From positions 81,559 to 145,558 of the forward strand of contig DASTOM010000024.1 of assembly GCA_035762545.1 (NCBI GenBank): a stretch of DNA of 64,000 nt. Reading direction: 5' to 3'. The DNA comes from Acidimicrobiia bacterium (GTDB taxonomy: Bacteria; Actinomycetota; Acidimicrobiia; Spongiisociales; ZC4RG35). How positions within the stretch are numbered: the stretch's first letter is position 1; every line of letters starts with the position of its first letter. Of the stretch, positions 8,040-60,016 are shown piece after piece. The position numbers and the translations under genes were made by a program. Below the pieces are notes generated by a model, which searched no databases, was not told where the DNA came from, and was given only the letters and a program-made list of their open reading frames with translations.

Positions 8040-8310
8040 TTAGGAAGCCAGGATCAGGGTGCCCACCAGCCAGACGAAGAAGATCCCAATCGAGATGGAC
8101 AAGACCTCACCGGTCCGTCGCCAGTTCAGCGCCATCCAGGTCCCACCGATGGCGACCAGGAACGCGAGGGCTGCAGACCACCACGTTGGGACCAATCCGG
8201 CAGCGGCGGCACCGATGATGAGGATCACCACCACGACCACGAACCCGCCGGCGACGAGCGCATAGAGAACCTGACGTGGGGTCGGCTCGGGTGAGGCTTC
8301 CCCGCTCACA
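8040..8310 (-). CDS. Small membrane protein (2 TM)
   Basis: Hydrophobic stretches GGFVVVVVILIIGAAAAGLV and ISIGIFFVWLVGTLILA. GTG start overlaps the mug stop (GTGA). Confidence 0.4.
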
Positions 8311-8869: not shown

Positions 8870-8899
8870 AGGTCGATATCTAGGCTCGCCGCCCGAGCA

Positions 8900-9514
8900 C
8901 TACTTCTTCTGGCTCTGGTAGTACGGGTCCTCGCCCGAAGCATGGTCGGTGACGTCTACGACCTGGCTCAACTCCGGGATCGACTCGAGGATGATGCGTT
9001 CGATGCCCTGCTTCAGCGTCACCTGAGCGAGACCACAGCCCTGACAGCCACCGAACAGACGGAGATAGGCAATCGTGCCGTCGATGGAGACGAGCTCGGC
9101 ACCTCCGCCGTGGGAGGCGATGGCGGGATTCACCTGCTCTTGGAGGACCTGTTGCACCCTGTCCACAAGCGGACCTTCGAGGTCTCCTGCGGGCGCCGTC
9201 ATGGCCGGTGGCGCCGGGGAGTTGGGGTTGTTCATCGCCAGGCCCTGATCGGTCAACTCCAGGGCAGCGCCATCGAGCTTGCCCCGGTCGGCCTTGGGGA
9301 AGATCACTGCGAGCCCGCCGTGGCGTTCCTCTGTCCAGTTCTCGGCCTTGTCGGCCAGAGGGACGAATGCCAGCTCATAGGAGAACTGCGGGCCCCGGAA
9401 ACCGGTCACCTCGATAGAGAGGGCGAACTCACCGTCGCCCTCCTCGTTGTCTCGGAGCTGAAGGATCATCTCGAGAGCGTCAGGCGCGATGCTCAGAACC
9501 GTGGGATCAGACAT
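8900..9514 (-). CDS. nfuA: Fe-S cluster biogenesis protein NfuA-like (IscA-like N-domain plus Nfu C-domain)
   Basis: C-terminal NifU-like CxxC motif GGCQGC. N-terminal HesB-like domain. Start at MSDPTV. Confidence 0.65.
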   Translation of the reverse strand: MSDPTVLSIAPDALEMILQLRDNEEGDGEFALSIEVTGFRGPQFSYELAFVPLADKAENWTEERHGGLAVIFPKADRGKLDGAALELTDQGLAMNNPNSPAPPAMTAPAGDLEGPLVDRVQQVLQEQVNPAIASHGGGAELVSIDGTIAYLRLFGGCQGCGLAQVTLKQGIERIILESIPELSQVVDVTDHASGEDPYYQSQKK

Positions 9515-44750: not shown

Positions 44751-45761
44751 GTGACGCCAATGGAAAGGATCGCGGTCGTCGGCGCCGGCTCGTGGGGAAC
44801 GACCGTTGCCCATTTGGCAGGTCAAAAGGTCGACACGCTGCTCTGGGCACGGCGTCCGGAGCTAGCCGCCCGAATCAACGAGACCCGGCGCAACGAGGAC
44901 TACCTCCCCGACCTCGAGCTCTCCGATCGACTCAGGGCGACCGCCGACATCGAAGACGCCGTGGCGACGGCTGATGTTGTCGTCATGGCCGCCCCGTCCC
45001 ACGGCTTTCGAGGGGTGTTCACGGGTGCAGCCGCTCACATCGGAGAAGGAGTCCCTGTGGTTTCGCTCACCAAGGGCATCGAGCAGGGCAGCCTGGCCAG
45101 GATGACACAGGTCATCCTCGAGGTAGACCCTGACATCGATGCATCGATCGTCGGTGTGCTGACCGGGCCCAACCTCGCAGCGGAGATCGTCATGGGACAA
45201 CCCACCGCATCAGTGATCGCAATGACCGATCGTCCCGCTGCCGAGGAACTCCAGCAGCTGTTCATGAACCCGGCTTTTCGTGTCTATACCAACGACGACG
45301 TCATCGGGTGCGAACTCGGTGGTGCCCTCAAGAACGTCATGGCGATCGCCTCCGGGATGTCAGATGGTCTTGGTTTCGGTGACAACACGAGGGCCACACT
45401 TCTCACCCGCGCTCTGGCCGAGCTGACCAGGTTGGGTGTCGCCCTCGGGGGAAGGCCGGAGACCTTCGCCGGTCTTGCCGGCATGGGCGACCTGATCGCC
45501 ACCTGCAGCTCCAACCGGAGCCGCAACCACCAGGTCGGGTTTGGCCTCGCACGGGGAAAGACCCTCGAGGAGATCGTCGAGGAGATGAGCATGGTCGCCG
45601 AGGGAGTCAAGACCACCAAGAGCGTGCTCGGTCTGGCCCAGAGAGCAGACGTGGACATGCCCATCGCCAGTCATGTCGATCGGGTCCTCGAAGGCGAGAT
45701 GTCCCCGCGTGAGGGCATGATGAGCCTGATGACACGCGAGGCGAAAGCGGAGTCGAGATGA
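44751..45761 (+). CDS. gpsA: NAD(P)H-dependent glycerol-3-phosphate dehydrogenase
   Basis: IAVVGAGSWGT Rossmann motif and GALKNVMAIA active-site block. Confidence 0.9.
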   Translation: MTPMERIAVVGAGSWGTTVAHLAGQKVDTLLWARRPELAARINETRRNEDYLPDLELSDRLRATADIEDAVATADVVVMAAPSHGFRGVFTGAAAHIGEGVPVVSLTKGIEQGSLARMTQVILEVDPDIDASIVGVLTGPNLAAEIVMGQPTASVIAMTDRPAAEELQQLFMNPAFRVYTNDDVIGCELGGALKNVMAIASGMSDGLGFGDNTRATLLTRALAELTRLGVALGGRPETFAGLAGMGDLIATCSSNRSRNHQVGFGLARGKTLEEIVEEMSMVAEGVKTTKSVLGLAQRADVDMPIASHVDRVLEGEMSPREGMMSLMTREAKAESR

Positions 45762-46390
45762 CCGACAAGACGACGATCCGGCGATTGCCGGAGAGGGGCG
45801 TGCATGACCGGTCGGCCATCGACGCGATCCTCGACGAGGGACTCGTTTGTCACGCCGCCTACGTGATCGACGGGCGTCCGGTCGTGATCCCGACCCTCTA
45901 CGCCAGGGACGGGAACCGTCTCCTCTTGCACGGTTCGAACTCGATGGGGCTGGCCAGGGCCGTGCGGTCCGGTTCGCCCCTGTCGGTGGCGGTGACCCAC
46001 ATCGACGGTCTCGTCGTGGCCAGGAGTGCCTTCCACTCCTCGGCCAACTACCGCAGCGTGGTGGTTCACGGGACAGGCCGGCTTCTCGAGGCTGAGGAGA
46101 AGAGACAGGCGTTCGACATGATCGTCGAAGCACTCATCCCGGGTCGCCTCGCCGACCTGCGGGAGTCCACCGACTCTGAGATCAGCCAGACTGCCATCGT
46201 GGAGCTCTCCCTTGACGAGATCTCGGCCAAGGTCCGAGCCGGAGGGCCTTTGGACGAGCCGGAGGACATGGATTCCGATGTATGGGCCGGGGTCGTCCCG
46301 TTCACCCTGCAGCCGGGTGATCCGGAGGCTTCCGACGACTTGAAGCCAGGGATCGCCACGCCTGAGTATCTGAAGCCATATCGCCGCTGA
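45758..46390 (+). CDS. Pyridoxamine 5'-phosphate oxidase family protein (FMN-binding split barrel)
   Basis: Split-barrel pattern CHAAYVIDGRPVVIPTLYARDG...LLLHG. ATGA overlap with gpsA. Confidence 0.65.
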   Translation: MTDKTTIRRLPERGVHDRSAIDAILDEGLVCHAAYVIDGRPVVIPTLYARDGNRLLLHGSNSMGLARAVRSGSPLSVAVTHIDGLVVARSAFHSSANYRSVVVHGTGRLLEAEEKRQAFDMIVEALIPGRLADLRESTDSEISQTAIVELSLDEISAKVRAGGPLDEPEDMDSDVWAGVVPFTLQPGDPEASDDLKPGIATPEYLKPYRR

Positions 46391-47148
46391 TCAGAAGAAG
46401 CCGGCGTGCCAGAGAGTCAGGGTCTCCATGGTCATGGCGATCCCGACGTGGATCGCGGCCGCCCACCAGAACGAGTTCGACTTGAGGGCGAGAAATCCGA
46501 GGACAGTGCCACCAAGGATCGCAGATAGGGCTTCGGCGGTGGGCTTGTCGAAGTGGATCATCGTGTAGGGCACCATCATCACGAACACGCTGGCGATGCC
46601 GAGCCGTGGACTGAGCCCGAAGAGCATGAAACCCCGGAAGAAGAACTCGACGGCGATGAACTGGAGGATGTACAGAGCCCACCAGACGACCAGACGCGGC
46701 CACCACGGCTCCCCGGGGCCTGGCTCGTAGAAGGGATAGCCCTCCTGGAATGCCGGGAGGTAGGACGCTGCGATGAGGAATGGCACCGACAGGAGAAACA
46801 GGACGAGGTAGGGACGTCCCGTCCCCGGCACCGGACGCCCGGCACCGAACGAGCGCAGCCGCTCGCCCATCAGCCTGATTGCGATGAGCGGTAAGGCGAA
46901 GTAGCCGACGATGGATATCCCGGCCCAACGCAGCAGGCGGTCGAACTCGCTGCTGTACCCGGTTCCGATCGAGGAGGATCGGAGGAAACGGATCGCCGCC
47001 AGGGACAACGCTGCAGTCACCAGGACGATCGCGACGTTGCTGAGTGAACGGCTCAGCGGGACCGAGCGGCGGTGCTCCTCGGCAGCATTCTCGGTCTCCG
47101 TCACCACGTCGGTGACGTAGACCTGCCACCAGCGGGGGGTTCGGGCCA
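46391..47148 (-). CDS. CPBP family intramembrane metalloprotease (CAAX protease / Abi family)
   Basis: Motif 1 EEFFFRG and downstream conserved His (HVGIAM). Start chosen at MARTPRWW; the exact coordinate is uncertain by a couple of nt. Confidence 0.6.
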
Positions 47149-47244
47149 TGGCTCCTCGAAAGGTCTTCGTGTCGACCGGATTATTCCCGACGACCTCCGC
47201 GTTTCCAGTGCAACCGGCAGACCACGGCCGGGGTTCTTGTTGTA

Positions 47245-48174
47245 ATGGCCACCACCAGACTGATCTCGACATCGCACGGCACCAACCGGGAGGCGTTCTC
47301 CGCCACCGACTGGGCGCTGTTCCTCTCGCTGGCTGCCATCTGGGGGTCGTCGTTCCTGTTCATGGCCATAGGGCTCGATGCATTTCATCCCGGGCTGGTG
47401 ACACTCATACGGGTCGGTCTCGGAGCGTCATTCCTGGCGCTGATACCTCGCACACGGTCTGTCTCGATCGACCGTGAAGACTGGCCCAAGATCGCCTTGC
47501 TCTCGGTGATCTGGGTGGCGTTGCCGTTCACACTGTTCCCGATCGCCCAACAGTGGATCGACTCCGCCATCGCCGGGATGCTGAACGGGGCGACCCCGAT
47601 CTTCACCGCCCTCATCGCTACCGCGCTCCTCCGGAGCCTGCCCGGCCCCCTTCAGATGACCGGCCTACTTCTCGGGTTTGCCGGCATCGTGGCAATCGCC
47701 CTGCCCTCGGCTGGTGGCGATACGACCGCGGCCATCGGGGTCATCCTGATCGTCCTCGCCACCATGGGATACGCGGTTTCGCTCAACATGGTTCCACCGT
47801 TGCAGCAAAAGTACGGGTCACTTCCGGTGACTGCCCGGGTTCTATGGCTGGCCGCCCCGATGGTGATGCCCTATGGGCTGGTGGGACTGGGACAATCCAG
47901 CTTTGCCTGGCCATCCCTGCTGGCGGTGGCGGCCGTCGGCATTCTCGGAACCGGCCTCGCCTTCATCTTCATGGGAAACCTCGCCGGAAGCGTCGGAGCG
48001 ACGAGGGCCTCGTTCCTCTCCTATCTGATCCCGGTGGTCGCCGTGGTGCTCGGTGTGGTTTTTCGGGACGAGATCGTCTCTCCGGTGGCCATCGCCGGAG
48101 TCCTGCTGGTGATCATCGGTGCGATCCTGGCCTCACGCCGTGAGACGAGAGAGATCGACCGACGCCCGGCGTAG
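47245..48174 (+). CDS. DMT superfamily transporter (EamA domain)
   Basis: Duplicated EamA 5-TM halves. Confidence 0.7.
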   Translation: MATTRLISTSHGTNREAFSATDWALFLSLAAIWGSSFLFMAIGLDAFHPGLVTLIRVGLGASFLALIPRTRSVSIDREDWPKIALLSVIWVALPFTLFPIAQQWIDSAIAGMLNGATPIFTALIATALLRSLPGPLQMTGLLLGFAGIVAIALPSAGGDTTAAIGVILIVLATMGYAVSLNMVPPLQQKYGSLPVTARVLWLAAPMVMPYGLVGLGQSSFAWPSLLAVAAVGILGTGLAFIFMGNLAGSVGATRASFLSYLIPVVAVVLGVVFRDEIVSPVAIAGVLLVIIGAILASRRETREIDRRPA

Positions 48175-49056
48175 GGCACGCATCGCCAACTCCTTGTCCC
48201 CGAGCCGGTGTCGCAGTTCCCGTTCGAGGCCACCGATCGGATAGAGGTTCTGTGGCGCCCGCGGGTCCTTGTGCCGGGCTGACGCATAGCGGGGAAGGGT
48301 GGCGCTCACCCGGGAGGCGACTCGCGCCGCGGTGGCGGCGTCGGTGTCGGCGTCGATTTCACAACGCACCAGCCCCCCGGCCGGGCCGGCGTGGTTGGCG
48401 AGCCGCAAGTACCACGAGTACCGGCTCCACGACGTGGTGGTCAGGAACAGCGGCGTCCGATAGCCGGCGGGCAGACCGGTCAGAACCTGGCGCAACTCCA
48501 TGGGGAGGTACTGGACCTTCTGGGTTTTGATGTAGCCGACGGCATTCTCGATGTCGCGGGCATGGCTCAAGGGCCCGTCCACCACCAAGAGCTCAGACTC
48601 CCCCGCCAGGCGGGTCATCTTCGCCTCGAGGTCACCCATGCGCTGCTGTATCCCCAGCCACAGCTCTTCTGGAGTGGTCCCCTTGGTCGCTTTGACCTCG
48701 TATGCGCCGACGCTGGTGGGAACGTCGACAGCAGGCGCAGAGGTGAACAACCCACGTTCCACCTCGGTGTTGGTGATGTGGGCGGTGCCGTTGCACCTGA
48801 CCACGCCAGCGGCGTAGGTGGCTGCCAGCGCAAAACCGGGGAAGTCGGGAGGCTGATCGATCCAGAGCGTCGCATCGACCCGTCGCACCCCGTCGACGAA
48901 CAGGACGTCACCGACCGGCTCGGAATCGGGGAGAAGGGGCCGCCAGTCCTCCGGTTTCAATTCGACCGAGACGTCGACGTTCTCGCTGGCATCCTCCAGG
49001 TCGGCGTCGGTCGGTGCGCCGTAGTCGGAGTCCCAGGCCTCCACGGTGAACTTCAC
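48133..49056 (-). CDS. Uncharacterised protein translationally coupled to sbcC; hypothesised NurA-like / RNase H-fold nuclease
   Basis: Start overlaps the sbcC stop by 4 nt. Two hydrophobic-strand-DG motifs (VLFVDGVRRV and LLVVDGPLSHARD) and several conserved acidic residues. No HD, HNH or P-loop motif. Confidence 0.45.
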   Translation of the reverse strand: MKFTVEAWDSDYGAPTDADLEDASENVDVSVELKPEDWRPLLPDSEPVGDVLFVDGVRRVDATLWIDQPPDFPGFALAATYAAGVVRCNGTAHITNTEVERGLFTSAPAVDVPTSVGAYEVKATKGTTPEELWLGIQQRMGDLEAKMTRLAGESELLVVDGPLSHARDIENAVGYIKTQKVQYLPMELRQVLTGLPAGYRTPLFLTTTSWSRYSWYLRLANHAGPAGGLVRCEIDADTDAATAARVASRVSATLPRYASARHKDPRAPQNLYPIGGLERELRHRLGDKELAMRALRRASVDLSRLTA

Positions 49057-51413
49057 GGAGCCAGCCTCACGGTGGCTCCGGTCGGCTCACGGGTCACCAC
49101 ATATCGCACCGGAGCGCGCGCCGCCAGTTCTTTGACGTGGGTGATGACACCGACCATCAGACCCCGTCCGGTCAGCTCTTCGAGAACCGAGGCGACGGTG
49201 TCGAGCGAATCGTCATCGAGTGTGCCGAATCCCTCGTCGAGGATGATGGCGTCGAGTCCCGACCCGCCCTTGGCTGCCAGCGTCTCCGCCAGAGATAGGG
49301 CCAGAGCCAGGGAGACCAGGAAAGTCTCCCCGCCGGAGAGTGTGGACACCGACCGTTGCTCGTCTGCGTTGCGATGGTCGACGATCGAGAAGTCCCCGGA
49401 GTAGTCGGAGGCGAGCGAATAGCCGCCGTTGGACAGCTGAGACAGCAGGTCGTTGGCCCCCTGCACCAGGTCGACCAGGGCACCGGCCATGAGCCACTGC
49501 TCGAAACCGTTGGAACGAAGGTGTCCCATCAAGGTCGTGGCCACCGCAGCGTCCTTCGTCGCCTCCTCCTTGGTTCGCGCCAGTTCGACAGAGTCAGCCA
49601 CGGCCTTCTCGTGGAGTTCGACCATGGTCCGGGCAACGTGGAGGGCGGAAGCCAGTTGGACCGCGTAGGGCTCGACCGCGGGGATCTCGTGGCTTTCGAG
49701 CAGCGCGGCCAGGCCTTTCTCGGCTCGTTCGGCGGCCATCTCGGCGTTTTCCACTGCCGTCCGGGCAATCTCCAACTGTGGCTCCATATCCTCGAGCCTC
49801 GCCGTGCGCCACCGCAGCAGGTCTTTCCACTGCACGATCACGTCGTCGCTCTCAGACAACTCCGGCTCGAGATCGGCGACTCGCAACTGGGCCTCGGTCA
49901 GCTTCCGACCGATCCGACGGGACTCCTCGGCCAGGTCCTCCAGGGCACGCCGTGCAGCCTTGACTTCTGCTGTCCGGGCTTCGAGTGCCTCCCGGGCCCT
50001 TGACATCTGTGTCTGGAACTCAGAGACCTTCTCCGACAACTGCGCCAGCTCATCAGGACTGGGGACATTCTCGAGGTCGACCATGACCGATTCCCTCTGC
50101 CGACCGACCTCCTCACGGGCCGTCTCGTGACGGGTGAGGACGCTCCTGGCATCGTCGAGTGCCCGCCTTGCCTCGTCCACGGAGACGGCGGCCGCCCGCT
50201 CGGCCTCCTCGAGTGCGTCGAGCTCGGGAAGGGCGGCTTCGCCAGGGAGGCGCTCCACGACCTGAGTGCAGACCGGACAGGCCTCGCCGGCGACGAGGGT
50301 GCCGACGAGGGCGTGGGCGGCGTGCCGCTGACGGGCCGAGTTCAGGTCGTCCCGGATCTGGAGGAGGAGGGCGGTGGATTCGCCGACCCGGGCTTCGGCA
50401 ACCGTGGCGGCCTCGGCAATCTCCGGCTGATCGAGGTCGGCGAGCCGGGCGTCGATCTCGGCGAGGCGAGCGTGGTGCCGGTCCCAGGAAGTCAGCTGGT
50501 CGGGCGAGGGAAGGACTTCCAGGGCTGATTCGATCTGTTCGATCTGTTGCCGGGCCGTTTCCAGCCTCTCCTCAGCGGTCTCGGCCCTTTCACGTGCATC
50601 GGAAGTCAGTGCATCGAGAGCCTCGAGACGGTCCGGTGCTGTGATCGATTGGAGTCGCTCCACCGAGCCGCGCAGGTGAGCTTCGTCGGTCGATGCCTGG
50701 TCGGCGATCCTGCGTAGTTCTGCCAGAGCCTTCTCGAGGTCTCCAAAACCGGCGGAGAGCTCGTCCAGTGTCTCGAGACGCTGGCGAGCCGTTGCGGCCG
50801 TCTCATCGTCGGGGACTTCCAGGGCCGCCAGCGCCCGTTCCGCTGACTCGGCCCGATCCGTCGAGACCGCGGCTCTGGTGCGGGCCAACTCCCGCACGGT
50901 GGTGTACACGTCGAGGCCGAGAAGGCTGCGCAGAAGTCCCTGACGCTCCGCCTTGGTCGCGGTGAGGAAGCGAGCAAAGTCCCCCTGGGGGAGGACCACT
51001 GTCCGGGTGAAGTCATCGAACCTGAGCTTGAGCAGATCCTCGACCGCCGTGCTGACCTGATCCGCCCCGCTGGCGACGACCTCATCGCCCAGGAGGAGAC
51101 GGGCTTCTTTGACGCTGGCCCCACCGGTCGCGGTCCGCTGCGCCAACCGGACCGCCGTGTAACGGTCTTCACCGACGTCGAACTCGAAGGCAACCCGGGC
51201 CCGGTCGGAGCCGGCAGTGATGGCAGGGGCGACTGCGTTGCCCCCTAGCCTGGGAACCCGTCCGTAGAGAGCGAAGATCATGGCGTCGATGAGACTCGAC
51301 TTGCCCGACCCGGTCGGTCCGGTCAGTGAGAAGAAGTCGACATCATCGAAATCGACCTCGACCGGTTTCCGATAGGCGGAGAAGCCCTCGACCCGGATCC
51401 GTGCCGGTCTCAT
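49053..51413 (-). CDS. sbcC: DNA double-strand-break repair ATPase SbcC (Rad50 homologue)
   Basis: Walker A GPTGSGKSS, long coiled coil with zinc-hook CPVC, ABC signature LSGGETFLVSLALALSLAE, Walker B LDEGFGTLD, H-loop GVITHV. Confidence 0.85.
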   Translation of the reverse strand: MRPARIRVEGFSAYRKPVEVDFDDVDFFSLTGPTGSGKSSLIDAMIFALYGRVPRLGGNAVAPAITAGSDRARVAFEFDVGEDRYTAVRLAQRTATGGASVKEARLLLGDEVVASGADQVSTAVEDLLKLRFDDFTRTVVLPQGDFARFLTATKAERQGLLRSLLGLDVYTTVRELARTRAAVSTDRAESAERALAALEVPDDETAATARQRLETLDELSAGFGDLEKALAELRRIADQASTDEAHLRGSVERLQSITAPDRLEALDALTSDARERAETAEERLETARQQIEQIESALEVLPSPDQLTSWDRHHARLAEIDARLADLDQPEIAEAATVAEARVGESTALLLQIRDDLNSARQRHAAHALVGTLVAGEACPVCTQVVERLPGEAALPELDALEEAERAAAVSVDEARRALDDARSVLTRHETAREEVGRQRESVMVDLENVPSPDELAQLSEKVSEFQTQMSRAREALEARTAEVKAARRALEDLAEESRRIGRKLTEAQLRVADLEPELSESDDVIVQWKDLLRWRTARLEDMEPQLEIARTAVENAEMAAERAEKGLAALLESHEIPAVEPYAVQLASALHVARTMVELHEKAVADSVELARTKEEATKDAAVATTLMGHLRSNGFEQWLMAGALVDLVQGANDLLSQLSNGGYSLASDYSGDFSIVDHRNADEQRSVSTLSGGETFLVSLALALSLAETLAAKGGSGLDAIILDEGFGTLDDDSLDTVASVLEELTGRGLMVGVITHVKELAARAPVRYVVTREPTGATVRLAP

Positions 51414-52549
51414 GAGCCGGTCCCCACCGTTTGGGCTTCGTCGAGCAATTCAGCGAAGAGGGCTTCGACCCGCGGGTCGGAGCTGTCCTTTTCGGCGAGG
51501 TACTTGGCGAAAGCCTCGGTCGGGTCGAGCCCTTGCCTCGACTCGGTGGCGGAACGTGGCTGGGTCGGGCTCTCCAATACCACTTCAACGGCATTGGGGA
51601 TCGCCTCACGCACTTCGTCGGCGAGGCCCACCCTGGCGCTCTCCCGGAGGACCACCCGGACATAGGCGTCACCGGTGTCACCGGCACGGGCCAGGACCTG
51701 CTCGAGACTTCCGGTGAGCGACATAAGCCTTCGACCCGAGGTGAGAGGAAGCTCCTGAACCGAAGCGGGCTTGCCCGGTTCGGCGGTGACCAGCAGGGCA
51801 CCCTTCTGATCGTTGACCTCGCCGAAGTCGAGTTGGAGCGGCGAGCCGGAGTACCAGACGGCCGAGGAGTGCGGCATCTTCTGTTGACGATGGAGATGGC
51901 CGAGCGCGACATATGACAGGTGGCCGGGGAAAAGGGCCGCCGGGATGGCGTATCCGAAGATGTGGGCGGTCCGCTCTCCACCCCCTGCCTCGGCGCCGTG
52001 GACGGTGAGATGCCCGGCCAACAGGTTGACGGTGTCAGGGGTCAAGTCTGCGGTGAGCATCTCGATGACCCGACGCATGCGCTCTTCGTACTTGCCGGCG
52101 TGCTGGTCGGGGTCGGAGCCCATGATGTCCTCGACCTTGACGATGGCCCGTTGGGAGACGAACGGGAGCAGGGCGACCTTGGCACCGACGTCGGGAAGGT
52201 CGACGACTCCCCCATCCTCGGGGGACCGGGCCGTCCCCACGACTTTGACGCCTGCCCTGTCCAGCAACGGCGCTACGGCGTCGAGCCGTGCCGGATGGTC
52301 GTGGTTGCCGGCGACGACGAGAACGGGTGACACCTCGGACAGGTCGAGCAGGGTGCGCCACACGATCTCCTCGGCAGCGGGAGTCGGTGAGGCGGTGTCG
52401 AATACATCACCTGCGACCAGGGTCAGGTCGACATCGTGGCTGTCGGCTAGTCCAACCAGCTCGGACAGCACCTCACGATGCTCGTCGGAGCGATCGCGCC
52501 CCCGGATTCGACGGCCGACATGCCAGTCGGAGGTGTGCAAGACCTTCAC
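51410..52549 (-). CDS. sbcD: DNA repair nuclease SbcD (Mre11 homologue)
   Basis: Calcineurin-like phosphoesterase motifs HTSDWHVG, AGDVFD, VVAGNHD, GHLH. GTG start. 4-nt overlap with sbcC. Confidence 0.85.
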   Translation of the reverse strand: MKVLHTSDWHVGRRIRGRDRSDEHREVLSELVGLADSHDVDLTLVAGDVFDTASPTPAAEEIVWRTLLDLSEVSPVLVVAGNHDHPARLDAVAPLLDRAGVKVVGTARSPEDGGVVDLPDVGAKVALLPFVSQRAIVKVEDIMGSDPDQHAGKYEERMRRVIEMLTADLTPDTVNLLAGHLTVHGAEAGGGERTAHIFGYAIPAALFPGHLSYVALGHLHRQQKMPHSSAVWYSGSPLQLDFGEVNDQKGALLVTAEPGKPASVQELPLTSGRRLMSLTGSLEQVLARAGDTGDAYVRVVLRESARVGLADEVREAIPNAVEVVLESPTQPRSATESRQGLDPTEAFAKYLAEKDSSDPRVEALFAELLDEAQTVGTGS

Positions 52550-52620
52550 GTCGAAGATCGTAGGAAGGGGGTGTGACAGATTTGAGGAACGTCAGGCGTC
52601 GGCCTGGAATGAGTTGAGGC

Positions 52621-52995
52621 TCAGTTCCCCTCGAGCGGGGTCTGTTGATGCAAGACGAGTTGCCAGTCGCCATCCTTGGCCTGGTAGACGCTGAGGATGT
52701 GAGCCCGGTATTCCTCGGCATCTTCTGTTCGTTTCCCAGTCGCTTCATAAACGAGGCCTACGACACCATCTTCGATCGGCACGAAGGTGGGATCGCTCAT
52801 CTCGTAGCTGGCCCATGGGTCCGCCTGACCCATGGCATCGACGACGTCTCGTTTGTCGAGCACCCCCATCGAGAGGACGAACCTTCCGCTGTCCGCTACA
52901 TGGGTTTCATAGAAATCCTGGTCGCCCGAGCTCTGCCAGAACGACTCTTCGATTTCGAGGACATCGGCGAACTCCACCGGTACTCCCTCGGTCAT
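52621..52995 (-). CDS. NTF2-like / SnoaL-like (DUF4440-type) protein
   Basis: C-terminal block YQAKDGDWQLVLHQQTP typical of DUF4440/SnoaL_3. Confidence 0.5.
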   Translation of the reverse strand: MTEGVPVEFADVLEIEESFWQSSGDQDFYETHVADSGRFVLSMGVLDKRDVVDAMGQADPWASYEMSDPTFVPIEDGVVGLVYEATGKRTEDAEEYRAHILSVYQAKDGDWQLVLHQQTPLEGN

Positions 52996-53069
52996 TGGCT
53001 GGGATTACCCGTGCGGGAAACTCGACAAACGGTGGTGGATGAGGTATCGATCGGGATGAGTCGGGGCGC

Positions 53070-54195
53070 TCATCCCGGGCTTCGTCGTCGACGAGCCTGT
53101 CCTTCCTCGATGTGGGTGAGCACGTGGTGGAAGCGGCAGAGCAGGACCCCATTCGCCACAGAGGTCTCACCACCGTCCGCCCAATGCTCGACGTGGTGGA
53201 TGTCGGCCCATCGTGCCGGTCTCTCACATCCGTTCCACCTGCAGGTGCGGTCCCGGGCGACGATGGCCCGCCGCTGCGCCACAGTCCACACCCTGGTCTT
53301 CCGGCCAACGTCGAGGACTTCGGAGTCGGGCCCGAACACGATCCGACACACCGACGAGTCGCAAGCGGTCAAACGAACGGCGTCGACAGCGACGATGGAA
53401 CCGGTGTCGAGGGTCTCGTGGGTGCCACCGGCGATGCCTTGCAAGCCGGCGATGTCGGTGAGCAGTTGAATCTGGGGACGTTCCCCGCCGACCTGCACCT
53501 CGTTGTCGTGGGTGAGATGACAGTTCGCCATCTCTTCCAGGGCGTCGTGTCGGCGCTGTCTCATCGACCTCGGATCGTCAGGAGCTGGCGGCGGCAGATG
53601 CGCGGAGAGGGCGGCTTCGAACGCCTCGCCCGCCAGTTGGGTCAGCCAACCATCGACACGTCGCATTCCATTCACGGCCTGGGACAAGGACAGGCCGCGA
53701 CGGACCATCTGTGACTCCAAGTCGAGGTCACCGGGTCCATCGACCGCCTGCCGCCAGTATTCGAGAGCACGGCCGGTCTCACGAACCGTCAACGGTTCCA
53801 CGATGTCGACCAGCTTCTCCTCGGCCTCCCGATAGACGTCAGGAACGGCGTCGGCCGTCTGGAACAGCTGGCTTGCCTGATCGGAGGAGATGCGGCCGTC
53901 CGACCAGGCCCGATAGGCCGCGGGGGCCGAGGCCTGTCCCTTGACTCGGGTCGCAAAACGTTTGGCCCGTCCGGCGCATCCGACCCACCTCCATCAGGTA
54001 CGTCGTGAGGGAGGGGAAACCCAGATCGGTGAGGCCACCCGTCGATTCGAGGACAGCGACCTTCTCGGCAACCAGGACCTTCATCTGGTCGATCCCCCGG
54101 CACAGTTCCCCGATCTCGACATTGAGCTCGTCGGTGGATAGCGATCGGTTGTCGACCGCCTTCAAATCATCGAGCAATGAACGAAGTTCGCTCAT
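53070..54195 (-). pseudogene. Frameshifted DUF222 / HNH endonuclease (REP13E12-like)
   Basis: N-terminal DUF222 segment in ORF 53839..54195 (MSELRSLLDDLKAV...LMEVGRM). The remainder (ATRVKGQ...AYRAWSDGRISSDQASQLF... then the HNH motif CRWNGCERPARWADIHHVEHWADGGETSVANGVLLCRFHH) is in a different frame. The single frame switch occurs near 53975-53995. Confidence 0.55.
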
Positions 54196-54307
54196 CCCAT
54201 TCCCCTCATGTCGAGAACGTACAACCCGCCCCCGACAGAAACTCGAACTATCAACCCCGCCTGAGAATCAACCTACGACCCAGGTGTGACAAGAAAAGGC
54301 GAGGGCA

Positions 54308-54375
54308 AAAACGAGCGCATACGTGCCGTTCTCGTGCGCTGCGCGTAACGCTCGTTATCCGCTCAAGAGTGTTGA
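54308..54375 (+). repeat. 68-bp element, copy 1 (catacgtgccg-N21-gctcgttatccgctcaagagtgttgatctcgggcgg)
   Basis: Direct repeat of 55089..55156 with identical internal spacing (32 nt). Lies in an unusually AT-richer intergenic stretch upstream of the membrane protein gene. Confidence 0.55.
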
Positions 54376-54455
54376 TCTCGGGCGGTAGGCGACCGACCAA
54401 ACAAGGTCAGCGCGTCTGTCAGCAACCAACTCCTTCGGATGCTTACCTGGTCTGA

Positions 54456-55070
54456 ATGCGCAGGGCGGTCGTTGTTGGGCTCGTTTGGGGAGCCTTCTGT
54501 GGGATGGCGAATGGCCTGCCAGGGGCCACGACTGTGGTCCAGATGGCGGTTCCGTGGATCTGGGTTGCGGCATTCGTCTCGTATCGAGGCGCAGACAGCA
54601 GCAGGCTGGCTGCCGTACTGGGTGCCATCGCGTTGTTTGTAGCCAATGTCGCCTACTTTGGAGTTGGGTCATTGGCTCGGAGCATTTCGGGGCTGTCTCC
54701 GGTCGGCGGCATTCGGTTCTTCGCATTGTGGGCGGCCATTGGATTGGTCATTGGGCCAATCGCCGGGGTGGTGGGCTGGTGGCTGACTTCTCAACGACGT
54801 TCATTCACCGCGGTTGTGATGCTGGCAACGGTTTCGGTTGCTGAGCCATTGGCGCTGTGGACCCACATCGACCACCTCGATGCTCACCTTGTGTACATAG
54901 CTGTCGCGGCAGCTGGCTTGGCGTTTCCGCTGGCTTGGTTTCGACGAGACCGGCGCAAGGCGCTCAGAGCTCTGGCTCTGGTTCTGATTCTGACCTATCC
55001 GATCGCAGTGGCGCTAGAAGCCACGTTGATAGCGCTTCGTCAGATCTCTTCTCCGATGAGACTCATCTGA
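54456..55070 (+). CDS. Hypothetical membrane protein (about 6 TM)
   Basis: Hydrophobic segments throughout. Flanked by a 68-bp direct repeat. Confidence 0.45.
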   Translation: MRRAVVVGLVWGAFCGMANGLPGATTVVQMAVPWIWVAAFVSYRGADSSRLAAVLGAIALFVANVAYFGVGSLARSISGLSPVGGIRFFALWAAIGLVIGPIAGVVGWWLTSQRRSFTAVVMLATVSVAEPLALWTHIDHLDAHLVYIAVAAAGLAFPLAWFRRDRRKALRALALVLILTYPIAVALEATLIALRQISSPMRLI

Positions 55071-55088
55071 TACTCGGAGCGCCCGCTC

Positions 55089-55156
55089 CATACGTGCCGA
55101 TACCGGGCACTTTGCGAAGTGCTCGTTATTCGCTCAAGAATGTTGATCTCGGGTGG
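55089..55156 (+). repeat. 68-bp element, copy 2 (catacgtgccg-N21-gctcgttattcgctcaagaatgttgatctcgggtgg)
   Basis: 34/36 identity in the 3' block and 11/11 in the 5' block. Located 18 nt after the stop of the membrane protein gene and about 290 nt upstream of the methyltransferase gene. Confidence 0.55.
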
Positions 55157-55443
55157 GTCGGAGAGATTGCCAAGCGAGCCCGGTCGCTGAGTCAAGCTTT
55201 GTCGCTCGGGCGCTGGAGTGGCGTGACAGCCTTCTTCGCCGTACTCGCCGCCTTCGTCGTCAGCTACCTCGTCTGCGTCGAGGTCGCCAAGTACTTCTTC
55301 TACAAGATCCATACCCCAATCACGGCCCAGCCTCTACAACGCGACCACGTCCACCGACTCGCCGCCCGCTGGAGCCATCCCCAGCCGCTGCAGCTCCAAG
55401 AATCCAGCCCTAACGCACGCCAACACCGGGTACGCTTCCGCCG

Positions 55444-56214
55444 GTGAGCTTCATCGTTGGGGCAGATGCGTACGACAGATTCATGGGCCGCTATTCGATG
55501 CATCTGGCACCCCAGCTTGCCGATCTGGCAGGGGTCGATGCCGGTCAGGAAGCCCTCGATGTCGGATGCGGCCCCGGCGCACTGACAGGCGAACTGGTCG
55601 GGCGTCTCGGACCATCCGCCGTAGCAGCAGTCGATCCTTCAGAATCCTTTGTAGCCGCGGCACATGAGCGGTACCCCGAAGTCGATGTGAGACGCGCTGC
55701 GGCCGAAGAGCTCCCATTCGCCGATCAGACCTTCGACGCCACCCTGGCTCAACTCGTAGTCCACTTCATGACAGACCCGGTTCGGGGCCTTGGCGAGATG
55801 GGCCGGGTGACACGCAAGGATGGTGTGGTGGCGGCGTGTGTTTGGGACCATGCCGGCGGTCAAGGGCCACTCAAGGTTTTCTGGGACGCGGCGCGCTCGC
55901 TTGATCCTGATGTCGATGATGAGTCGTGGCGTGCCGGCACTAGCGAGGGCCATCTAGCGCAGTTGTTCCAAGAGGCCGGGTTGCGCCAAGTCGAGCAGTC
56001 GGTTCTCGAAGTTGGCGTCGACCATTCGAGCTTTGAGGAGTGGTGGGAGCCGTTCACTCTCGGCGTGGGCCCTGCAGGCGCCTACACCGCCGGCCTCGAA
56101 CCGCGACGAGCATCGGAGTTGCGTGAACGTGCCCTCGAAATGTTGCCGACGGCCCCGTTCACGGTGACAGCACGGGCCTGGGCAGCGCGCGGGGTGGTGC
56201 AGCCTGTCAGCTGA
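55444..56214 (+). CDS. Class I SAM-dependent methyltransferase
   Basis: SAM-binding motif LDVGCGPGALT and acidic post-I motif. Confidence 0.8.
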   Translation: MSFIVGADAYDRFMGRYSMHLAPQLADLAGVDAGQEALDVGCGPGALTGELVGRLGPSAVAAVDPSESFVAAAHERYPEVDVRRAAAEELPFADQTFDATLAQLVVHFMTDPVRGLGEMGRVTRKDGVVAACVWDHAGGQGPLKVFWDAARSLDPDVDDESWRAGTSEGHLAQLFQEAGLRQVEQSVLEVGVDHSSFEEWWEPFTLGVGPAGAYTAGLEPRRASELRERALEMLPTAPFTVTARAWAARGVVQPVS

Positions 56215-56691
56215 TCGGAAGAGCTCAGCCGGCCGCTTGTAGCGGGCCGAGCACCCGGATCGTCTCGATCTCGTCGACGACCTCCACGCGCCACTCGTTG
56301 CCCAGGAACACCCAGCTGGAGAAGTGATCGACCTCGGCCAACTCTTCGGCAGTCTTGCCGTATACCCCACTCATCTCCATGAATGTGTCAAAGCAGTCCT
56401 GGGTGCCCGGATAGAGGAGGTAACACAGATGCAGGGACACGTTGGACCGTGACTCGTGCCGGGTCCCGACCCTGGCACACGTACACGACGCGATCCTCCA
56501 GAACGCGATCTCCTAGCTTGGCTTTGGTGAGCTGCAGTATCACGGTGTGGATGACCGGCAACAGAGTCGACCCAGACCAGATCCAGCTGGTCCGAATCGC
56601 CACCATCACTACCCCAGAAGGGGCGCATAACGCGCGGCCCTTATCACGAAATCGACGAAATCACCCGCGCGCTATCCGGCAATCTGCGCTA

Positions 56692-57184
56692 TCACTCAGC
56701 ACCCTGACGCCGCCGAATCAACTCCTCAACTGGCGTCGGCAGGGTCTCCTCGAAATCGATCAGCTTGGCCCACGTCGGCTTGACCACCATCCGCACCATC
56801 GAGTCATAGAGGGATCGCACACCAGCCTCCCACTCCACCCGCTGCCCGGGCGTCATCTCATAGGTCCCGCTCATTTGGAAGTACTCGTCAGGGATCCCAT
56901 CGGACTTCATCGAGTTCTGCATCACCACGGAGCAGGAGGATCTTCGGCGGATGGCTCTCCGTGTCGATCGTCAACGCCACCGCTGCGTTGCGTCGCAGCG
57001 AGGCAAGCTTCGGAGCGTTGGTCGGGGTGCACATGACGATTCCCGTGCCGTTCCAGAAGATCCCGATCGGCACGACTCTGGGGGTGCGATCCGACGCCAC
57101 ATAGGCCAGACGAGCGATGTCCCGGTTCAGCATCTCCTGACTGAGCGGTTTCGCCAGCATCTCGGCTACCTCGTCACGTCCCAC
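56692..57184 (-). pseudogene. Frameshifted PPOX-class (probable F420/FMN-dependent split-barrel) oxidoreductase
   Basis: The N-terminal half (ORF 56888..57184, RLAYVASDRTPRVVPIGIFWNG...AVALTID) and the C-terminal half (ORF 56692..56928) are in different frames and overlap by about 40 nt. Together they give the usual length of about 160 aa. Confidence 0.45.
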
Positions 57185-57211
57185 GGTGTCCTCCCACCCG
57201 GCTTGGTGGCG

Positions 57212-58879
57212 CTACAAATCCTCGAAGGGGTCCTCCGGGCCGTCGTAGTCGGTGGGACGAACCGCCTCGGAGGCACGGGTTGCCCAGGCGGGGAAGGGGA
57301 ACTCGAGCACCAGAGGAACCGGTAGCTCGGGCTGGCTGAGGATCATCGTCCCCGGTTTCACGATCGTCGCTCGCTGACGGTGGGGACCGGGGAGGAATCC
57401 GTACTCCTCACGTGACGCCTCGGCGGAATCGAGACGTCCCACCACCCGGATCGAGCTGTTGGCGATGATGCGACGCTCCACCTCGGATGCAGTCTGCTGG
57501 GCTCCGATCAGGATGACACCCAATGACCTGCCCCGTTCGGCGATGTCCAACAGGATCTCTTTGATCGGGCTCGAGCCTTCCCGGGGGGCGTACTTGTTGA
57601 GTTCGTCGAGGACCACCATCATCAATTCGTCCGCCTGACCGGCACGCTCCTTGTCCTCGAATGCCCGCTTCAGGGTCACACCCACCACGAATCGCTTGGC
57701 CCGATCGTTGAGGTTGTGCAGGTCGACCACCGTCACTTGGTGGTGCAACCCGATTCGGTGTCGTTCCGGGTCGGCGACATCGGCCCGGATCAGCCGACCC
57801 AGGTGGCGTACAGACGCTTGCAGACGACGGACGAATGCGTTGACGGTCCCGATCCCGATCGCCGGCCCGGCCCACTGGTACCGGTGCTCTTCGCTCTGCA
57901 CCCGCTCGGTGATGAGGTCGGCCAACTCACGGAACGTCCGCACCCTGACGCCGTCGATCACGGCCGCACCGGTCTCAGTCAGATCGGCCTGGCGCAGTTG
58001 CGCCATCACGTTGTAGACGACGGTGGTGTATTGGGCCCGGTCGTCCTCGGCGTCGGCGAACAGGAACGGAAGGAGATCGTCGACGCAGAACTCGTGGATG
58101 CTCCAGAAGAACGACGTCACGTCCGACCGGGAGGCGACATCGGCCGTTGCCCTGGGATCGTCGATGCGAGGCGGGGCGAACAACCCGACCGAGTCGAAAG
58201 GGTTGCTGGGAAGCCCAAGGTCGGCGTAACGGGAACGCTGCTCCTCGTCGAGGCGGTTGTTGACCCGGTCGAGATGCAGAAGGTCTTCGCCCTTGACGTT
58301 GAACACCAACGCTTTGGTGTTGACAGCGGCGGGGCCCAACACTCCCGAGGTGAAAAGAGAGTGGAGCAGGAAGGTTGCGTAGCTGGTCTTGGTTGCCACA
58401 CCGGAGATGCCGGAGATGTTGATGTGCGCCCCTCGCTCACCGTTGATGAACTCGAGGTTGACCCACAGCGGCTCACCGTTGCGTGCCAGACCCACCGGCA
58501 GCTTGCGTTCCATGCGGTCGAAGAACAGCGCCCGGTCGCGTTCTTCGCCCTGGGCCACCCGCACCTCCTGTCCTGGTCTTGGCGGGACGAAGACCTCGGG
58601 CTCGAAACGGGTGGCGGTGACCTGGGCGGCCTCGGTGACCTCGGCGGGGAGGATGCCTTCCTCGATGAGGAACACATCAGAGTCGAAACGAGCTCCCTCG
58701 TGCCGGGCAACTACCTGTCCCACGGTGCCGTACATGCGCACCACCTCGCCGGTGGGCAGCACCCGCTCCAGTGCGACGACGTCGTCGAGCTGCAGGTACT
58801 CGCCTTCGCCGACACCCACCCAGAACTCGAGTGGCGTGGCGTCCCTGGTTCCCAGGACTCTCCCGACCGAATCAGCCAT
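57212..58879 (-). CDS. HerA-like ATPase (FtsK/HerA superfamily, DUF87-type)
   Basis: N-terminal HAS-barrel-like segment MADSVGRVLGTRDATPLEFWVGVGEGEYLQLDDVVALE. Deviant P-loop INISGISGVATKTS. Walker B MMVVLDELNKY. FtsK/HerA-type C-terminal block LGVILIGAQQTASEV...SIRVVGRL. The ORF-track extension 58880..59359 is rejected. Confidence 0.65.
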   Translation of the reverse strand: MADSVGRVLGTRDATPLEFWVGVGEGEYLQLDDVVALERVLPTGEVVRMYGTVGQVVARHEGARFDSDVFLIEEGILPAEVTEAAQVTATRFEPEVFVPPRPGQEVRVAQGEERDRALFFDRMERKLPVGLARNGEPLWVNLEFINGERGAHINISGISGVATKTSYATFLLHSLFTSGVLGPAAVNTKALVFNVKGEDLLHLDRVNNRLDEEQRSRYADLGLPSNPFDSVGLFAPPRIDDPRATADVASRSDVTSFFWSIHEFCVDDLLPFLFADAEDDRAQYTTVVYNVMAQLRQADLTETGAAVIDGVRVRTFRELADLITERVQSEEHRYQWAGPAIGIGTVNAFVRRLQASVRHLGRLIRADVADPERHRIGLHHQVTVVDLHNLNDRAKRFVVGVTLKRAFEDKERAGQADELMMVVLDELNKYAPREGSSPIKEILLDIAERGRSLGVILIGAQQTASEVERRIIANSSIRVVGRLDSAEASREEYGFLPGPHRQRATIVKPGTMILSQPELPVPLVLEFPFPAWATRASEAVRPTDYDGPEDPFEDL

Positions 58880-58915
58880 CTCCCGCGAGCGTAGATACCG
58901 GGGGCGACAGATCCG

Positions 58916-60016
58916 GTGAGCCTCGTCGTGTTCCCTTTCAAGGAGGAGGACGTCTCCGTGGTGGCCGCCAATTTGAAGACCGCCGCCGCACACGACCGGG
59001 TCGACGAGGTGTGGGCCGTTGCCGCGGCTGAGGGGGCGGCGATGGCTGACGTCGACGAAGCCGCGACTGAGGTGGCGACGGCGATTGGCACTCCGGTGTC
59101 GGTGTTCCCTCAGGAGCGGATCGGGATCTACCGATCCGGCAAGGGCGACGGGATGAACACTGCGATTGCCTTGGCAGCAGAGCGAGGCTTCGACCGGACT
59201 CACTTCTACGACGCAGACATCACCAACTTCGACACGACGTGGATCGACGGAGCGGAACATGCAGCAGACAGGGGCTATGGCGTGGTCCGTCACCGCTTTC
59301 CCCGGGCGGCGACCGACGCCATGATCACCTGGATGGTGACCCGACCCGGACTGGCACACCGATTCCCCGGAACCCTGCTCCCCCGGCTCGGACAGCCGCT
59401 CGGAGGCGAGATCCTCCTCAATCGGGACGCCGTCGAGGCGCTAGCGGGCAAGAAGAGCGTGCGCCAGCGTTCGGATTGGGGCATCGACACAGTGATCACC
59501 CACGCCACGGCGCTACTCGACCTCGGTATCTACGAGCACAACGCGCCCGACGGGAAGCGCCACGCTCTCTATGGCTCGCTCACCGATATACGGGACATGG
59601 TCCTCGAGTGCCTCGACGCCGTGGCCCGACTCGAAGGAGCACCGGACCCGGCGGTCGGCTTCGATTCCGACCCGCCCTCCGAGGTTCCGGCCGACCTCAA
59701 GGAGACAGTGGCGTACGACGTATCGGCGACGCGACGATCGATCGACCAGCCGATCTCGGAGGAAGAACGCGCCATCTTCCACTCCCTGGGACTCGATCCC
59801 AGCGGCCCGATCGTGGTCGATGACCGTTTGTGGAAGCGGCTCCTCCCCCAGCTCCTGGTCAGGTTCGACCTCACCGACCACGCTTGGCGTGGTGTCGTCT
59901 TTCGGCTCTGGGTCGAACGGGTGATCCATTACACGACACATCAGGTTCCACTGGGATACGACGCTGCGATGGTGTACCTCGAAGAGACGGTGCAGGCGTT
60001 CGAGCACCCGGGATGA
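58916..60016 (+). CDS. Glycosyltransferase resembling glucosyl-3-phosphoglycerate synthase (GT81 family)
   Basis: Alignable by eye to the mycobacterial GpgS layout: N-terminal VVFPFKEEDVSVV, GKGDGMNTAIALAAERG, then FYDADITNFDT, and a C-terminal region with R.PLL..L....GGE.LL.R. Confidence 0.45.
   Translation: MSLVVFPFKEEDVSVVAANLKTAAAHDRVDEVWAVAAAEGAAMADVDEAATEVATAIGTPVSVFPQERIGIYRSGKGDGMNTAIALAAERGFDRTHFYDADITNFDTTWIDGAEHAADRGYGVVRHRFPRAATDAMITWMVTRPGLAHRFPGTLLPRLGQPLGGEILLNRDAVEALAGKKSVRQRSDWGIDTVITHATALLDLGIYEHNAPDGKRHALYGSLTDIRDMVLECLDAVARLEGAPDPAVGFDSDPPSEVPADLKETVAYDVSATRRSIDQPISEEERAIFHSLGLDPSGPIVVDDRLWKRLLPQLLVRFDLTDHAWRGVVFRLWVERVIHYTTHQVPLGYDAAMVYLEETVQAFEHPG

Follow-up and report, generated by a model that had tools for sequence, protein, structure and literature searches.

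The question raised by this locus is whether herA, mre11, rad50 and nurA, which follow one another in this order in the archaeal operon, also form a functional unit of bacterial lineage. The locus belongs to an Acidimicrobiia bacterium and lies in a stretch of 64,000 nucleotides (nt) (assembly GCA_035762545.1, contig DASTOM010000024.1, positions 81,559-145,558, forward strand) that was analysed as a whole and is referred to here as the window. A preliminary description of this DNA had proposed a bacterial HerA-Mre11-Rad50-NurA-type system, and the identities of all four proteins have been borne out. The locus probably represents a bacterial four-component machine for the processing of double-strand break ends, whose genes ancestrally formed a single herA-sbcD-sbcC-nurA operon that was split here by an insertion and whose role, judged by homology, would be damage-induced resection. 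Its elements are listed below (aa, amino acids; GC, guanine plus cytosine).

57212..58879, minus strand: predicted herA, 555 aa (phmmer against the PDB, 7F6D_B)
58888..58909, minus strand: promoter-like motif TGTCGCCCCCGGTATCTACGCT (TGTCR-N11-TANNNT) before herA (pattern match)
52550..57211, no strand assigned: inserted block splitting the operon (Pfam, GC composition, comparison with the contigs of relatives)
52557..52578, minus strand: promoter-like motif TGTCACACCCCCTTCCTACGAT before sbcD (pattern match)
51410..52549, minus strand: predicted sbcD (Mre11-type nuclease), 379 aa (TIGR00619, Pfam Metallophos and SbcD_C)
49053..51413, minus strand: predicted sbcC (Rad50-type ABC ATPase), 786 aa (TIGR00618, Pfam AAA_23, SMC_N and SbcC_Walker_B)
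48133..49056, minus strand: predicted nurA, 307 aa (Pfam PF09376, phmmer against 7F6D_H and 1ZUP)

The 555-aa ATPase is identified from its sequence as a full-length orthologue of the HerA protein of Deinococcus radiodurans (drHerA; complex structures 7F6D and 7WRW/7WRX, genes DR_0837/DR_0836 for HerA-NurA) and thus as a predicted member of the bacterial HerA clade. In a phmmer search of the PDB it matched drHerA (7F6D_B) with an E value of 1.4e-145 and 489 bits over query residues 2-538, and the HerA proteins of three relatives (loci L003, L005 and L007; 551-555 aa) are 90-91% identical to it from end to end. Walker A and B and the catalytic glutamate are kept, i.e., GVATKTS at residues 160-166, KGEDLL at 196-201 with the catalytic residue, and VLDELNKYAP at 423-432. 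Of these, GVATKTS, KGEDLL and VLDELN (423-428) align with K175/T176, residue 220 and D487/E488 of drHerA (for K175, T176, D487 and E488, see PMC9960219). A HAS-barrel N-terminus is proposed solely from the drHerA alignment, which covers this region from residue 2. By likeness to the D. radiodurans complex, the window HerA is expected to form a hexameric ring that would dock on a NurA dimer.

Whether the ATPase should rather be grouped with the DUF87 ATPases of conjugation or defence had been left to further searches, and these favour HerA. Anti-phage HerA proteins (Sir2-HerA and DUF4297-HerA; 8XAU, 8ZIQ and 9C1M) also combine an FtsK-HerA superfamily ATPase with a nuclease-type effector, but their similarity to the window HerA is marginal, confined to the Walker B region and no better than E = 0.0065 (0.0065-0.06); over the four anti-phage or unannotated HerA-family PDB chains, whose source is not stated, the range was 0.0065-0.43. 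The NCBIfam HerA_antiphage models gave E values of 0.011-0.068. Neither Sir2 nor DUF4297 is found among the neighbours of the window herA, which are a glycosyltransferase gene and the inserted block, and the partners here are NurA and SbcCD, unlike the Sir2 and DUF4297 partners of the anti-phage systems. An exact look-up of the window HerA sequence returned no record, and Pfam assigned no family at E ≤ 0.01 to the ATPase, searched as a 715-aa open reading frame (ORF) together with plasmid homologues, the HAS-barrel and DUF87 models included. The Pfam HerA, DUF87 and HAS-barrel models thus miss the bacterial HerA clade at this threshold (window, L089, L090 and L091), an annotation gap that is accompanied by the RefSeq labels "ATP-binding protein" for the clade and "hypothetical protein" for its partner NurA.

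The longest mechanical reading of the ATPase ORF extends from 59359 to 57212 on the minus strand (715 aa), whereas the preliminary description had placed the start at 58879. The downstream start is supported over 59359, because the protein read from MADSVGRVLGT aligns at residue 1-2 with homologues of 551-555 aa, because the alignment with drHerA begins at residue 2, because the longer 5' extension would overlap the divergent glycosyltransferase gene, and because a promoter-like motif ends 8 nt 5' of the ATG. The glycosyltransferase gene (mannosylglycerate-synthase-like, 58916-60016, plus strand) is separated from herA by an intergenic gap of 36 nt (58880-58915), which has the same length in locus L007. 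With only 36 nt between the two genes, both promoters must overlap each other or adjacent coding sequence.

The last gene of the downstream block, an uncertain candidate for NurA in the preliminary description, is predicted to encode a bacterial-type NurA nuclease. The 307-aa protein scored 23.4 bits on Pfam NurA (PF09376), a small margin over the cut-off of 21 (E = 4.8e-5, residues 105-271), and phmmer matched it in the PDB to D. radiodurans NurA (drNurA; 7F6D_H) at E = 1.6e-17 and to Thermotoga TM1739 (1ZUP) at E = 4.8e-7. Residues D55 (FVDGVRR), K177 (GYIKT) and R266 (KDPRAPQN), which are invariant across 28 homologues, align with D53, K201 and R309 of drNurA, where D53 is a confirmed catalytic-site residue, K201 and R309 assist and mutation of any one of the three abolishes nuclease activity (PMC9960219). 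The N-terminal tryptophan of the D. radiodurans type (W8) and D160 are also kept, whereas the protein, at 307 aa, falls short of the 369 residues of the deposited D. radiodurans chain. An AlphaFold2 model based on a shallow alignment of 28 close homologues was of low confidence (mean predicted local distance difference test 54, predicted template modelling score 0.58). Foldseek placed it nearest to 7f6d_G (2.9e-12), followed by 1zup (7.6e-11), both with a template modelling score of about 0.54 and with Argonaute far behind, and the model thereby lends weak support to an RNase H-like fold in agreement with the assignment. Homologues of this NurA in the protein collection number more than 5,500, and NCBI names some of them "DNA double-strand break repair nuclease NurA."

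The two central genes code for proteins of bacterial type that, judged by their motifs, are intact. SbcD reached 175 bits on TIGR00619 (cut-off 77.65), matched the Pfam domains Metallophos and SbcD_C, and carries the phosphoesterase motifs DWH (8-10), GDVFD (47-51) and GNHD (81-84) as well as GHLTVHG and GHLH. SbcC obtained 239 bits on TIGR00618, which is under the subfamily cut-off of 478.5, a consequence of its short length (786 aa on a model of 1043 positions). Its motifs comprise Walker A GPTGSGKSS (32-40), the Q-loop LPQG, the zinc hook CPVC at mid-length (379-382), the signature LSGGE (692-696), Walker B ILDEGFG (723-730) and the H-loop ITH. In the operons of loci L009-L088, the length of SbcC ranges from ~750 to ~1,080 aa, presumably by way of the coiled coil, and the window protein is near the short end. 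According to the ORF list, the 4-nt overlaps described earlier between the three minus-strand genes are at 51410-51413 (sbcD/sbcC) and 49053-49056 (sbcC/nurA), and sbcD, sbcC and nurA are thus predicted to be translationally coupled.

These scores bear on the origin of the set, which had been called archaeal-style, a term that stands for the gene order and fails for the lineage of the proteins, since all four score as bacterial type. The gene order, which equals that of the archaeal cluster, would speak for a recent horizontal transfer of the whole herA-mre11-rad50-nurA cluster from archaea, and bacterial herA-nurA genes are usually treated in the literature as archaeal imports (PMC5448004, PMC12977600). 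The archaeal Mre11 models, however, gave SbcD about 49 bits or less against its 175, the archaeal Rad50 models gave SbcC 81 bits or less against its 239, and the NCBIfam archaeal HerA models were weak on the window HerA (E about 0.02-0.05). In PDB searches up to an E value of 10, neither a HerA of the archaeal HerA-NurA type nor an archaeal NurA was among the matches; drHerA was the only strong HerA match, and NurA matched two bacterial structures only. Recent transfer from archaea was rejected on these model scores and PDB matches and is the least credible of the explanations considered.

The second part of the question concerns the 4.7 kb between herA and sbcD, which the preliminary description had interpreted as a possible insertion into an ancestral four-gene operon. 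This interpretation holds. In locus L007 (GCA_964558575.1), whose HerA (555 aa) is 90% identical to that of the window, herA, sbcD, sbcC and nurA are contiguous, with 21 nt between the called herA and sbcD genes, so that the spacer is to be regarded as an insertion. Smaller blocks are found at the same junction in other relatives, namely one opposite-strand globin gene in L005 and L006 and one DUF222-HNH gene in L003 and L004. The flanks of relatives of the L003, L005 and L007 type are syntenic with the window at about 66-77% nucleotide identity and share the divergent glycosyltransferase gene 5' of herA and the genes for EamA, PNPOx, glycerol-3-phosphate dehydrogenase and YchF downstream. These housekeeping flanks indicate a stable chromosomal site at which the herA-sbcD junction alone varies. 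A chimeric assembly as the origin of the spacer was ruled out by three independent contigs from other samples, which tile it at ≥99.7% identity: L001 (window positions 44958-54328), L094 (53413-57265) and L095 (55089-57470). The inserted block contains the following genes.

56888-57184, minus strand: small PNPOx_N-like ORF (Pfam)
55444-56214, plus strand: S-adenosylmethionine methyltransferase (Pfam), apparently intact
54456-55070, plus strand: DUF6518 membrane protein (Pfam), apparently intact
53070-54197, minus strand: DUF222-HNH endonuclease gene (Pfam), with a 2-bp deletion near 53978
52621-52995, minus strand: DUF4440 gene (Pfam), apparently intact

The content of the spacer had been described as degraded genes and repeats, of which only part applies: one gene (DUF222-HNH) is frameshifted and one pair of 68-nt repeats is present, while the DUF4440, DUF6518 and methyltransferase genes appear intact. 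The DUF222-HNH gene of the near-identical L001 and L094 is intact (375 aa), and the 2-bp deletion in the window is either a strain-specific pseudogene mutation or a sequencing error. Members of the same family are found at the herA-sbcD junction in L003 and elsewhere in L009. The GC content of the window drops to 0.59-0.60 at 54.0-55.5 kb. The direct repeat (54318-54385 and 55089-55156, plus strand) is 81% identical over 68 nt, with a core of 33 nt in which 31 positions agree, and brackets the DUF6518 gene; both core mismatches fall on degenerate positions of the search pattern. Each copy is located roughly 70 nt or less 5' of the start of a plus-strand ORF, and contig L001 ends inside the first copy. 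The repeat, which has no further copy in the window and no match in Rfam, could represent a promoter or leader region that was duplicated, and it may break assemblies. A scan of 46-61 kb with Rfam gave no match at E ≤ 1.

To what extent the arrangement is shared can be judged from the relatives of HerA, whose clade amounts to 513 clusters (50% identity level, E values below 1e-30). A HerA profile scan of one genome per GTDB species yielded at least 593 relatives; tblastn was used to map the best 80 (62-90% identity), and the 64 loci whose downstream sequence spanned 4.3 kb or more were regarded as informative. In 72 of the 80 loci, herA is followed on its own strand by sbcD, the gap being ≤250 nt in 61 of these 72 and ≤20 nt in many, which agrees with the expectation that herA and sbcD are direct neighbours in the absence of the spacer, as in L007. 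All four genes are found in order on one strand in 59 of the 64 informative loci, a recurrence far beyond chance, as had been anticipated for the colocalization of herA-like and sbcDC genes. The archaeal-type order on one strand is accordingly present in L007 and 58 other loci, and the window keeps order and strand with herA 4.7 kb away. A lack of linkage to sbcCD, which had been taken as established for bacterial HerA/NurA pairs, does not hold in general, linkage being the rule in this HerA clade. Insertions recur at the herA-sbcD junction, with gaps of 0.6-4.4 kb in eleven loci, and the sbcD-sbcC-nurA block is interrupted in L034 only (2.8 kb between sbcD and sbcC). Two Acidimicrobiia species, L024 (74% identical HerA) and L081 (62%), have no sbcD, sbcC or nurA within 10 kb downstream of herA or elsewhere in the fetched locus. 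Within the Actinomycetota, the hosts are Acidimicrobiia, Nitriliruptorales and Micromonospora (cultured, e.g., Micromonospora chokoriensis NRRL B-24750, locus L083); the other phyla are Gammaproteobacteria (including a closed 5.8-Mb chromosome), Bacteroidota, Acidobacteriota, Chloroflexota (a closed Dehalococcoidia chromosome) and Gemmatimonadota.

Does the split leave the two halves under common control? The 36 nt upstream of herA contain TGTCGCCCCCGGTATCTACGCT, followed by 8 nt and the ATG, and upstream of sbcD TGTCACACCCCCTTCCTACGAT ends 7 nt before the GTG start; across the loci, the local consensus of the motif is TGTCACacCCcggtnnTACgnT. The -10 element mostly ends 5-10 nt 5' of the start codon, as expected of leaderless transcripts. 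The spacing of the two elements, with TGTCR placed 16 nt upstream of TANNNT, is what we take to be the geometry of RecA-NDp/PafBC promoters. The strict mycobacterial pattern TGTCRGTG-N8-TANNNT (≤1 mismatch) was found in the window only at the DUF222 site and one other position, and the relaxed form TGTCR-N11-TANNNT was needed. This form has five matches on both strands of the window, against 0.56 expected. Four of these matches belong to the locus and are on the coding strand, i.e., before herA, before sbcD and twice before the DUF222-HNH gene (54216-54237 and 54270-54291); the fifth is inside an unrelated ORF. DUF222-HNH ("13E12") genes belong to the RecA-NDp/PafBC regulon of Mycobacterium tuberculosis, and if this membership holds, the DUF222 matches would be a cross-lineage positive control.

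In 1.39 Mb of sequence (the window and the loci of the other species), 58 matches were counted, for 43 of which an ORF of ≥100 aa begins 4-44 nt downstream; 26 of these 43 precede herA (the window included), in contrast to a frequency of 0.3% in random stretches of 162 nt, and nine precede sbcD, and the remainder includes DUF222-HNH genes, a RecQ-family helicase gene (L033) and a gene for a DUF559 protein. Among the Actinomycetota loci, the motif is located 5' of herA in 22 of 64 and 5' of sbcD in 9 of 59, in contrast to none of 13 each in other phyla; the strict motif was not found in the Micromonospora loci. Relatives with a herA-sbcD gap of ≥48 nt, or with an insertion in it, have a copy before sbcD, and those with a gap of 2-20 nt lack one. 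The same type of motif on both halves indicates that the split halves stay coregulated, and this sharing points to coregulation only. We infer that herA and sbcD-sbcC-nurA are coregulated through the shared candidate promoter and, by analogy with PafBC-type control, that herA and sbcD may be induced by DNA damage. The mycobacterial RecA-NDp/PafBC promoters share with the window sites the 16-nt placement of TGTCR relative to TANNNT and are often found on leaderless genes. Across the Actinobacteria, promoters of this type drive DNA repair genes, including those of the end-resection complexes RecBCD and AdnAB (PMC8223512, PMC5087735).

Control by an SOS box is not supported, because LexA boxes (TCGAAC-N4-GTTCGA, ≤2 mismatches) had 13 matches in the window, none of them 5' of herA or sbcD. 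A sigma-70 promoter scan gave zero promoters and terminators not above expectation, an outcome that is uninformative in a high-GC actinobacterium. Two side observations concern the motif in other Acidimicrobiia. In L024, herA keeps it without a linked sbcD, and in L033 (Acidimicrobiales) the gene for the RecQ-family helicase (DEAD, Helicase_C and RecQ_Zn_bind; 6857-8923, minus strand), which is divergent beside herA, has it 7 nt before its start. To our knowledge, herA, sbcD and nurA are not among the known members of the PafBC regulon, and mycobacteria lack this operon.

The distance between the two halves could also mean that herA is functionally separate from sbcD-sbcC-nurA, with a role in segregation or DNA transfer and a proximity that is a historical accident. 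In the window, herA is separated from sbcD by 4.7 kb that include opposite-strand genes, L024 and L081 have a herA without sbcD or nurA within 10 kb, and the HerA of Thermus (HepA) is needed for DNA donation and competence (PMC5448004). Such a separation is hard to reconcile with the order and strand kept in 59 of 64 informative loci, many with gaps of ≤20 nt, and with the rare promoter motif common to both halves. Moreover, the operon that begins with herA ends with the gene for NurA, which in the solved 7F6D complex is the obligate partner of HerA. We regard it as very improbable.

For the favoured reading, a split but coregulated machine for end processing, the following course is proposed. 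Foreign or mobile DNA, i.e., the DUF222-HNH gene and the cassette of lower GC content, would have been inserted at the herA-sbcD junction in an Acidimicrobiia lineage, leaving two transcription units, herA alone and sbcD-sbcC-nurA, each with its own putative leaderless TGTCR-N11-TANNNT promoter. At a broken chromosome, SbcCD would recognize broken, blocked or hairpin ends and clip them; a HerA hexamer seated on a NurA dimer would then translocate along the duplex with ATP and feed NurA, which would degrade the 5' strand and leave a 3' tail for RecA. The models for this mechanism are the HerA-NurA complex of D. radiodurans, for which ATP-dependent resection of DNA ends was demonstrated (PMC9960219), and the archaeal system (PMC2288612, PMC3326311). 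Both the cooperation of SbcCD with HerA-NurA and the role in resection are inferred by analogy with these systems.

Several observations weigh against this reading. Reportedly, the RecA-NDp consensus of Gamulin et al. 2004 is tTGTCRgtg-N8-TAnnnT, and the bases after TGTCR are mostly ACaCC in the sites described here, not GGTG as in mycobacteria. Many of the motif-bearing loci are related, and the numbers of motif copies, e.g., the 26 before herA and nine before sbcD, are not numbers of independent events. In D. radiodurans, the loss of NurA or HerA had little effect on radiation resistance (PMC4663267), and in Thermococcus kodakarensis HerA-NurA degrades both strands; in the same study, of 2026, its role in resection was questioned and an antiviral role proposed (PMC12977600), as was likewise done by Blackwood et al. 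(PMC3326311). The identity of 62-70% that HerA retains across phyla implies horizontal transfer, which is typical of defence genes too, and one plasmid copy adjoins genes of a putative defence system.

The last points lead to an explanation of the four genes as an anti-plasmid or anti-phage module that would destroy linear or unusual foreign double-stranded DNA instead of repairing the chromosome. Known defence systems, among them Sir2-HerA and DUF4297-HerA, have a HerA ATPase as their motor, and the operon is patchily distributed over six or more phyla. The plasmid copy in question is L089, on the linear plasmid NZ_CP134205.1 of Streptomyces sp. BB1-1-1 (412745-430403), where the order is herA-sbcD-sbcC-nurA and the RefSeq names are "ATP-binding protein," "exonuclease SbcCD subunit D," "SMC family ATPase" and "hypothetical protein." It adjoins TIGR02680, TIGR02678 and DUF2397 genes, which we take to be Wadjet-like, and the gene of an ImmA/IrrE metalloprotease. 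The plasmids of the cyanobacteria Sphaerospermopsis and Aulosira and of Chlorohelix show the order nurA-herA-sbcD-sbcC, with the first gene recognized as nurA at E values from 4e-60 to 5e-26 by a hidden Markov model built from 56 operon NurAs. In the Chlorohelix plasmid (L091), an ImmA/IrrE gene is directly upstream, and sigma-factor and TIR genes are nearby. The neighbourhoods of L089 and L091 may reflect a damage- or defence-linked regulatory context outside the Actinomycetota.

On the other side, the operon of the window's clade is embedded in a conserved housekeeping neighbourhood common to the relatives and not in a variable island, and its promoter motif is of the type that drives DNA repair genes in Actinobacteria. 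PADLOC gave no convincing system match for the four proteins, only generic SMC/ABC matches and partial, C-terminal matches of HerA (6e-8 and 3.8e-9). Relatives of HerA are rare on mobile elements, with occurrences in 6 of 72,556 plasmid records and two distant matches in 50,697 phage genomes. A defence module is therefore considered unlikely, and damage-induced end processing remains the preferred reading.

Comparison with the known systems delimits what is peculiar to the window. In D. radiodurans, herA and nurA are adjacent and handled as one operon, whereas in the window sbcD and sbcC stand between them in addition to the 4.7-kb insertion. The archaeal operon, e.g., of Sulfolobus and Pyrococcus, clusters the same four functions. 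Its genes are cotranscribed and Mre11 interacts with HerA (PMC2288612). The window proteins are all predicted members of bacterial clades (SbcD and SbcC, and HerA and NurA of the Deinococcus type), and HerA-NurA contacts are reported to be ionic in the bacterial type, in contrast to the hydrophobic contacts of the archaeal type (PMC9960219). The operon of the window, moreover, is physically split and appears to be preceded by RecA-NDp-like leaderless promoters. The cluster is one that would work like the archaeal operon, yet is not of archaeal lineage.

The closest precedent is the hepA(herA)-sbcD-sbcC arrangement of Oceanithermus profundus, where SbcD and SbcC are encoded directly downstream, a linkage that was noted by Blesa et al. 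in 2017 and that the authors read as an archaeal-like architecture of double-strand break repair (PMC5448004). That case concerns one organism of the Thermales, whereas the type described here has nurA last and is spread over six phyla. In Oceanithermus, nurA is presumably located upstream of hepA, as in Thermus. Bacterial herA-nurA was still described as a Deinococcus-Thermus feature in 2026 (PMC12977600), while a review lists NurA/HerA homologues in Cyanobacteria, Actinobacteria and Firmicutes, with D. radiodurans as the only bacterium studied (PMC8708640), and the connection between bacterial HerA-NurA and SbcCD has been left explicitly open (PMC4663267). In the searchable literature, the scope of which did not extend to Iyer 2004, Constantinesco 2004 and Cheng 2015 (J Bacteriol), no description was found of the breadth of the operon, the nurA-last order or the RecA-NDp-like promoters.

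The window itself is ordinary in kind, since both its protein families and their functional combination are known, the interruption being due to mobile DNA. What is added is that, in one large bacterial HerA clade covering at least six phyla, the four genes almost always form one operon, and that in the motif-bearing loci of the Actinomycetota a candidate promoter of the DNA damage type precedes this operon or, in split cases, each of its halves. The operon thus represents a widespread and under-recognized bacterial system made of known parts, which bears on the debate as to whether HerA-NurA resects breaks or destroys foreign DNA and points to tractable cultured organisms. A more far-reaching proposal, which we put forward only tentatively, is that these operons constitute a single widespread bacterial end-resection machine that in the Actinomycetota would belong to the PafBC (RecA-independent) regulon, would be the counterpart of the archaeal system and no oddity of Deinococcus-Thermus, and, in lineages such as these Acidimicrobiia, may be the principal way in which a double-strand break gives rise to a RecA filament. 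If this is true, the gene order common to bacteria and archaea would reflect either an ancient module or a strong selection for order, and the disputed link between Mre11-Rad50 and HerA-NurA would become accessible to genetics in the cultured carriers (Micromonospora and Streptomyces).

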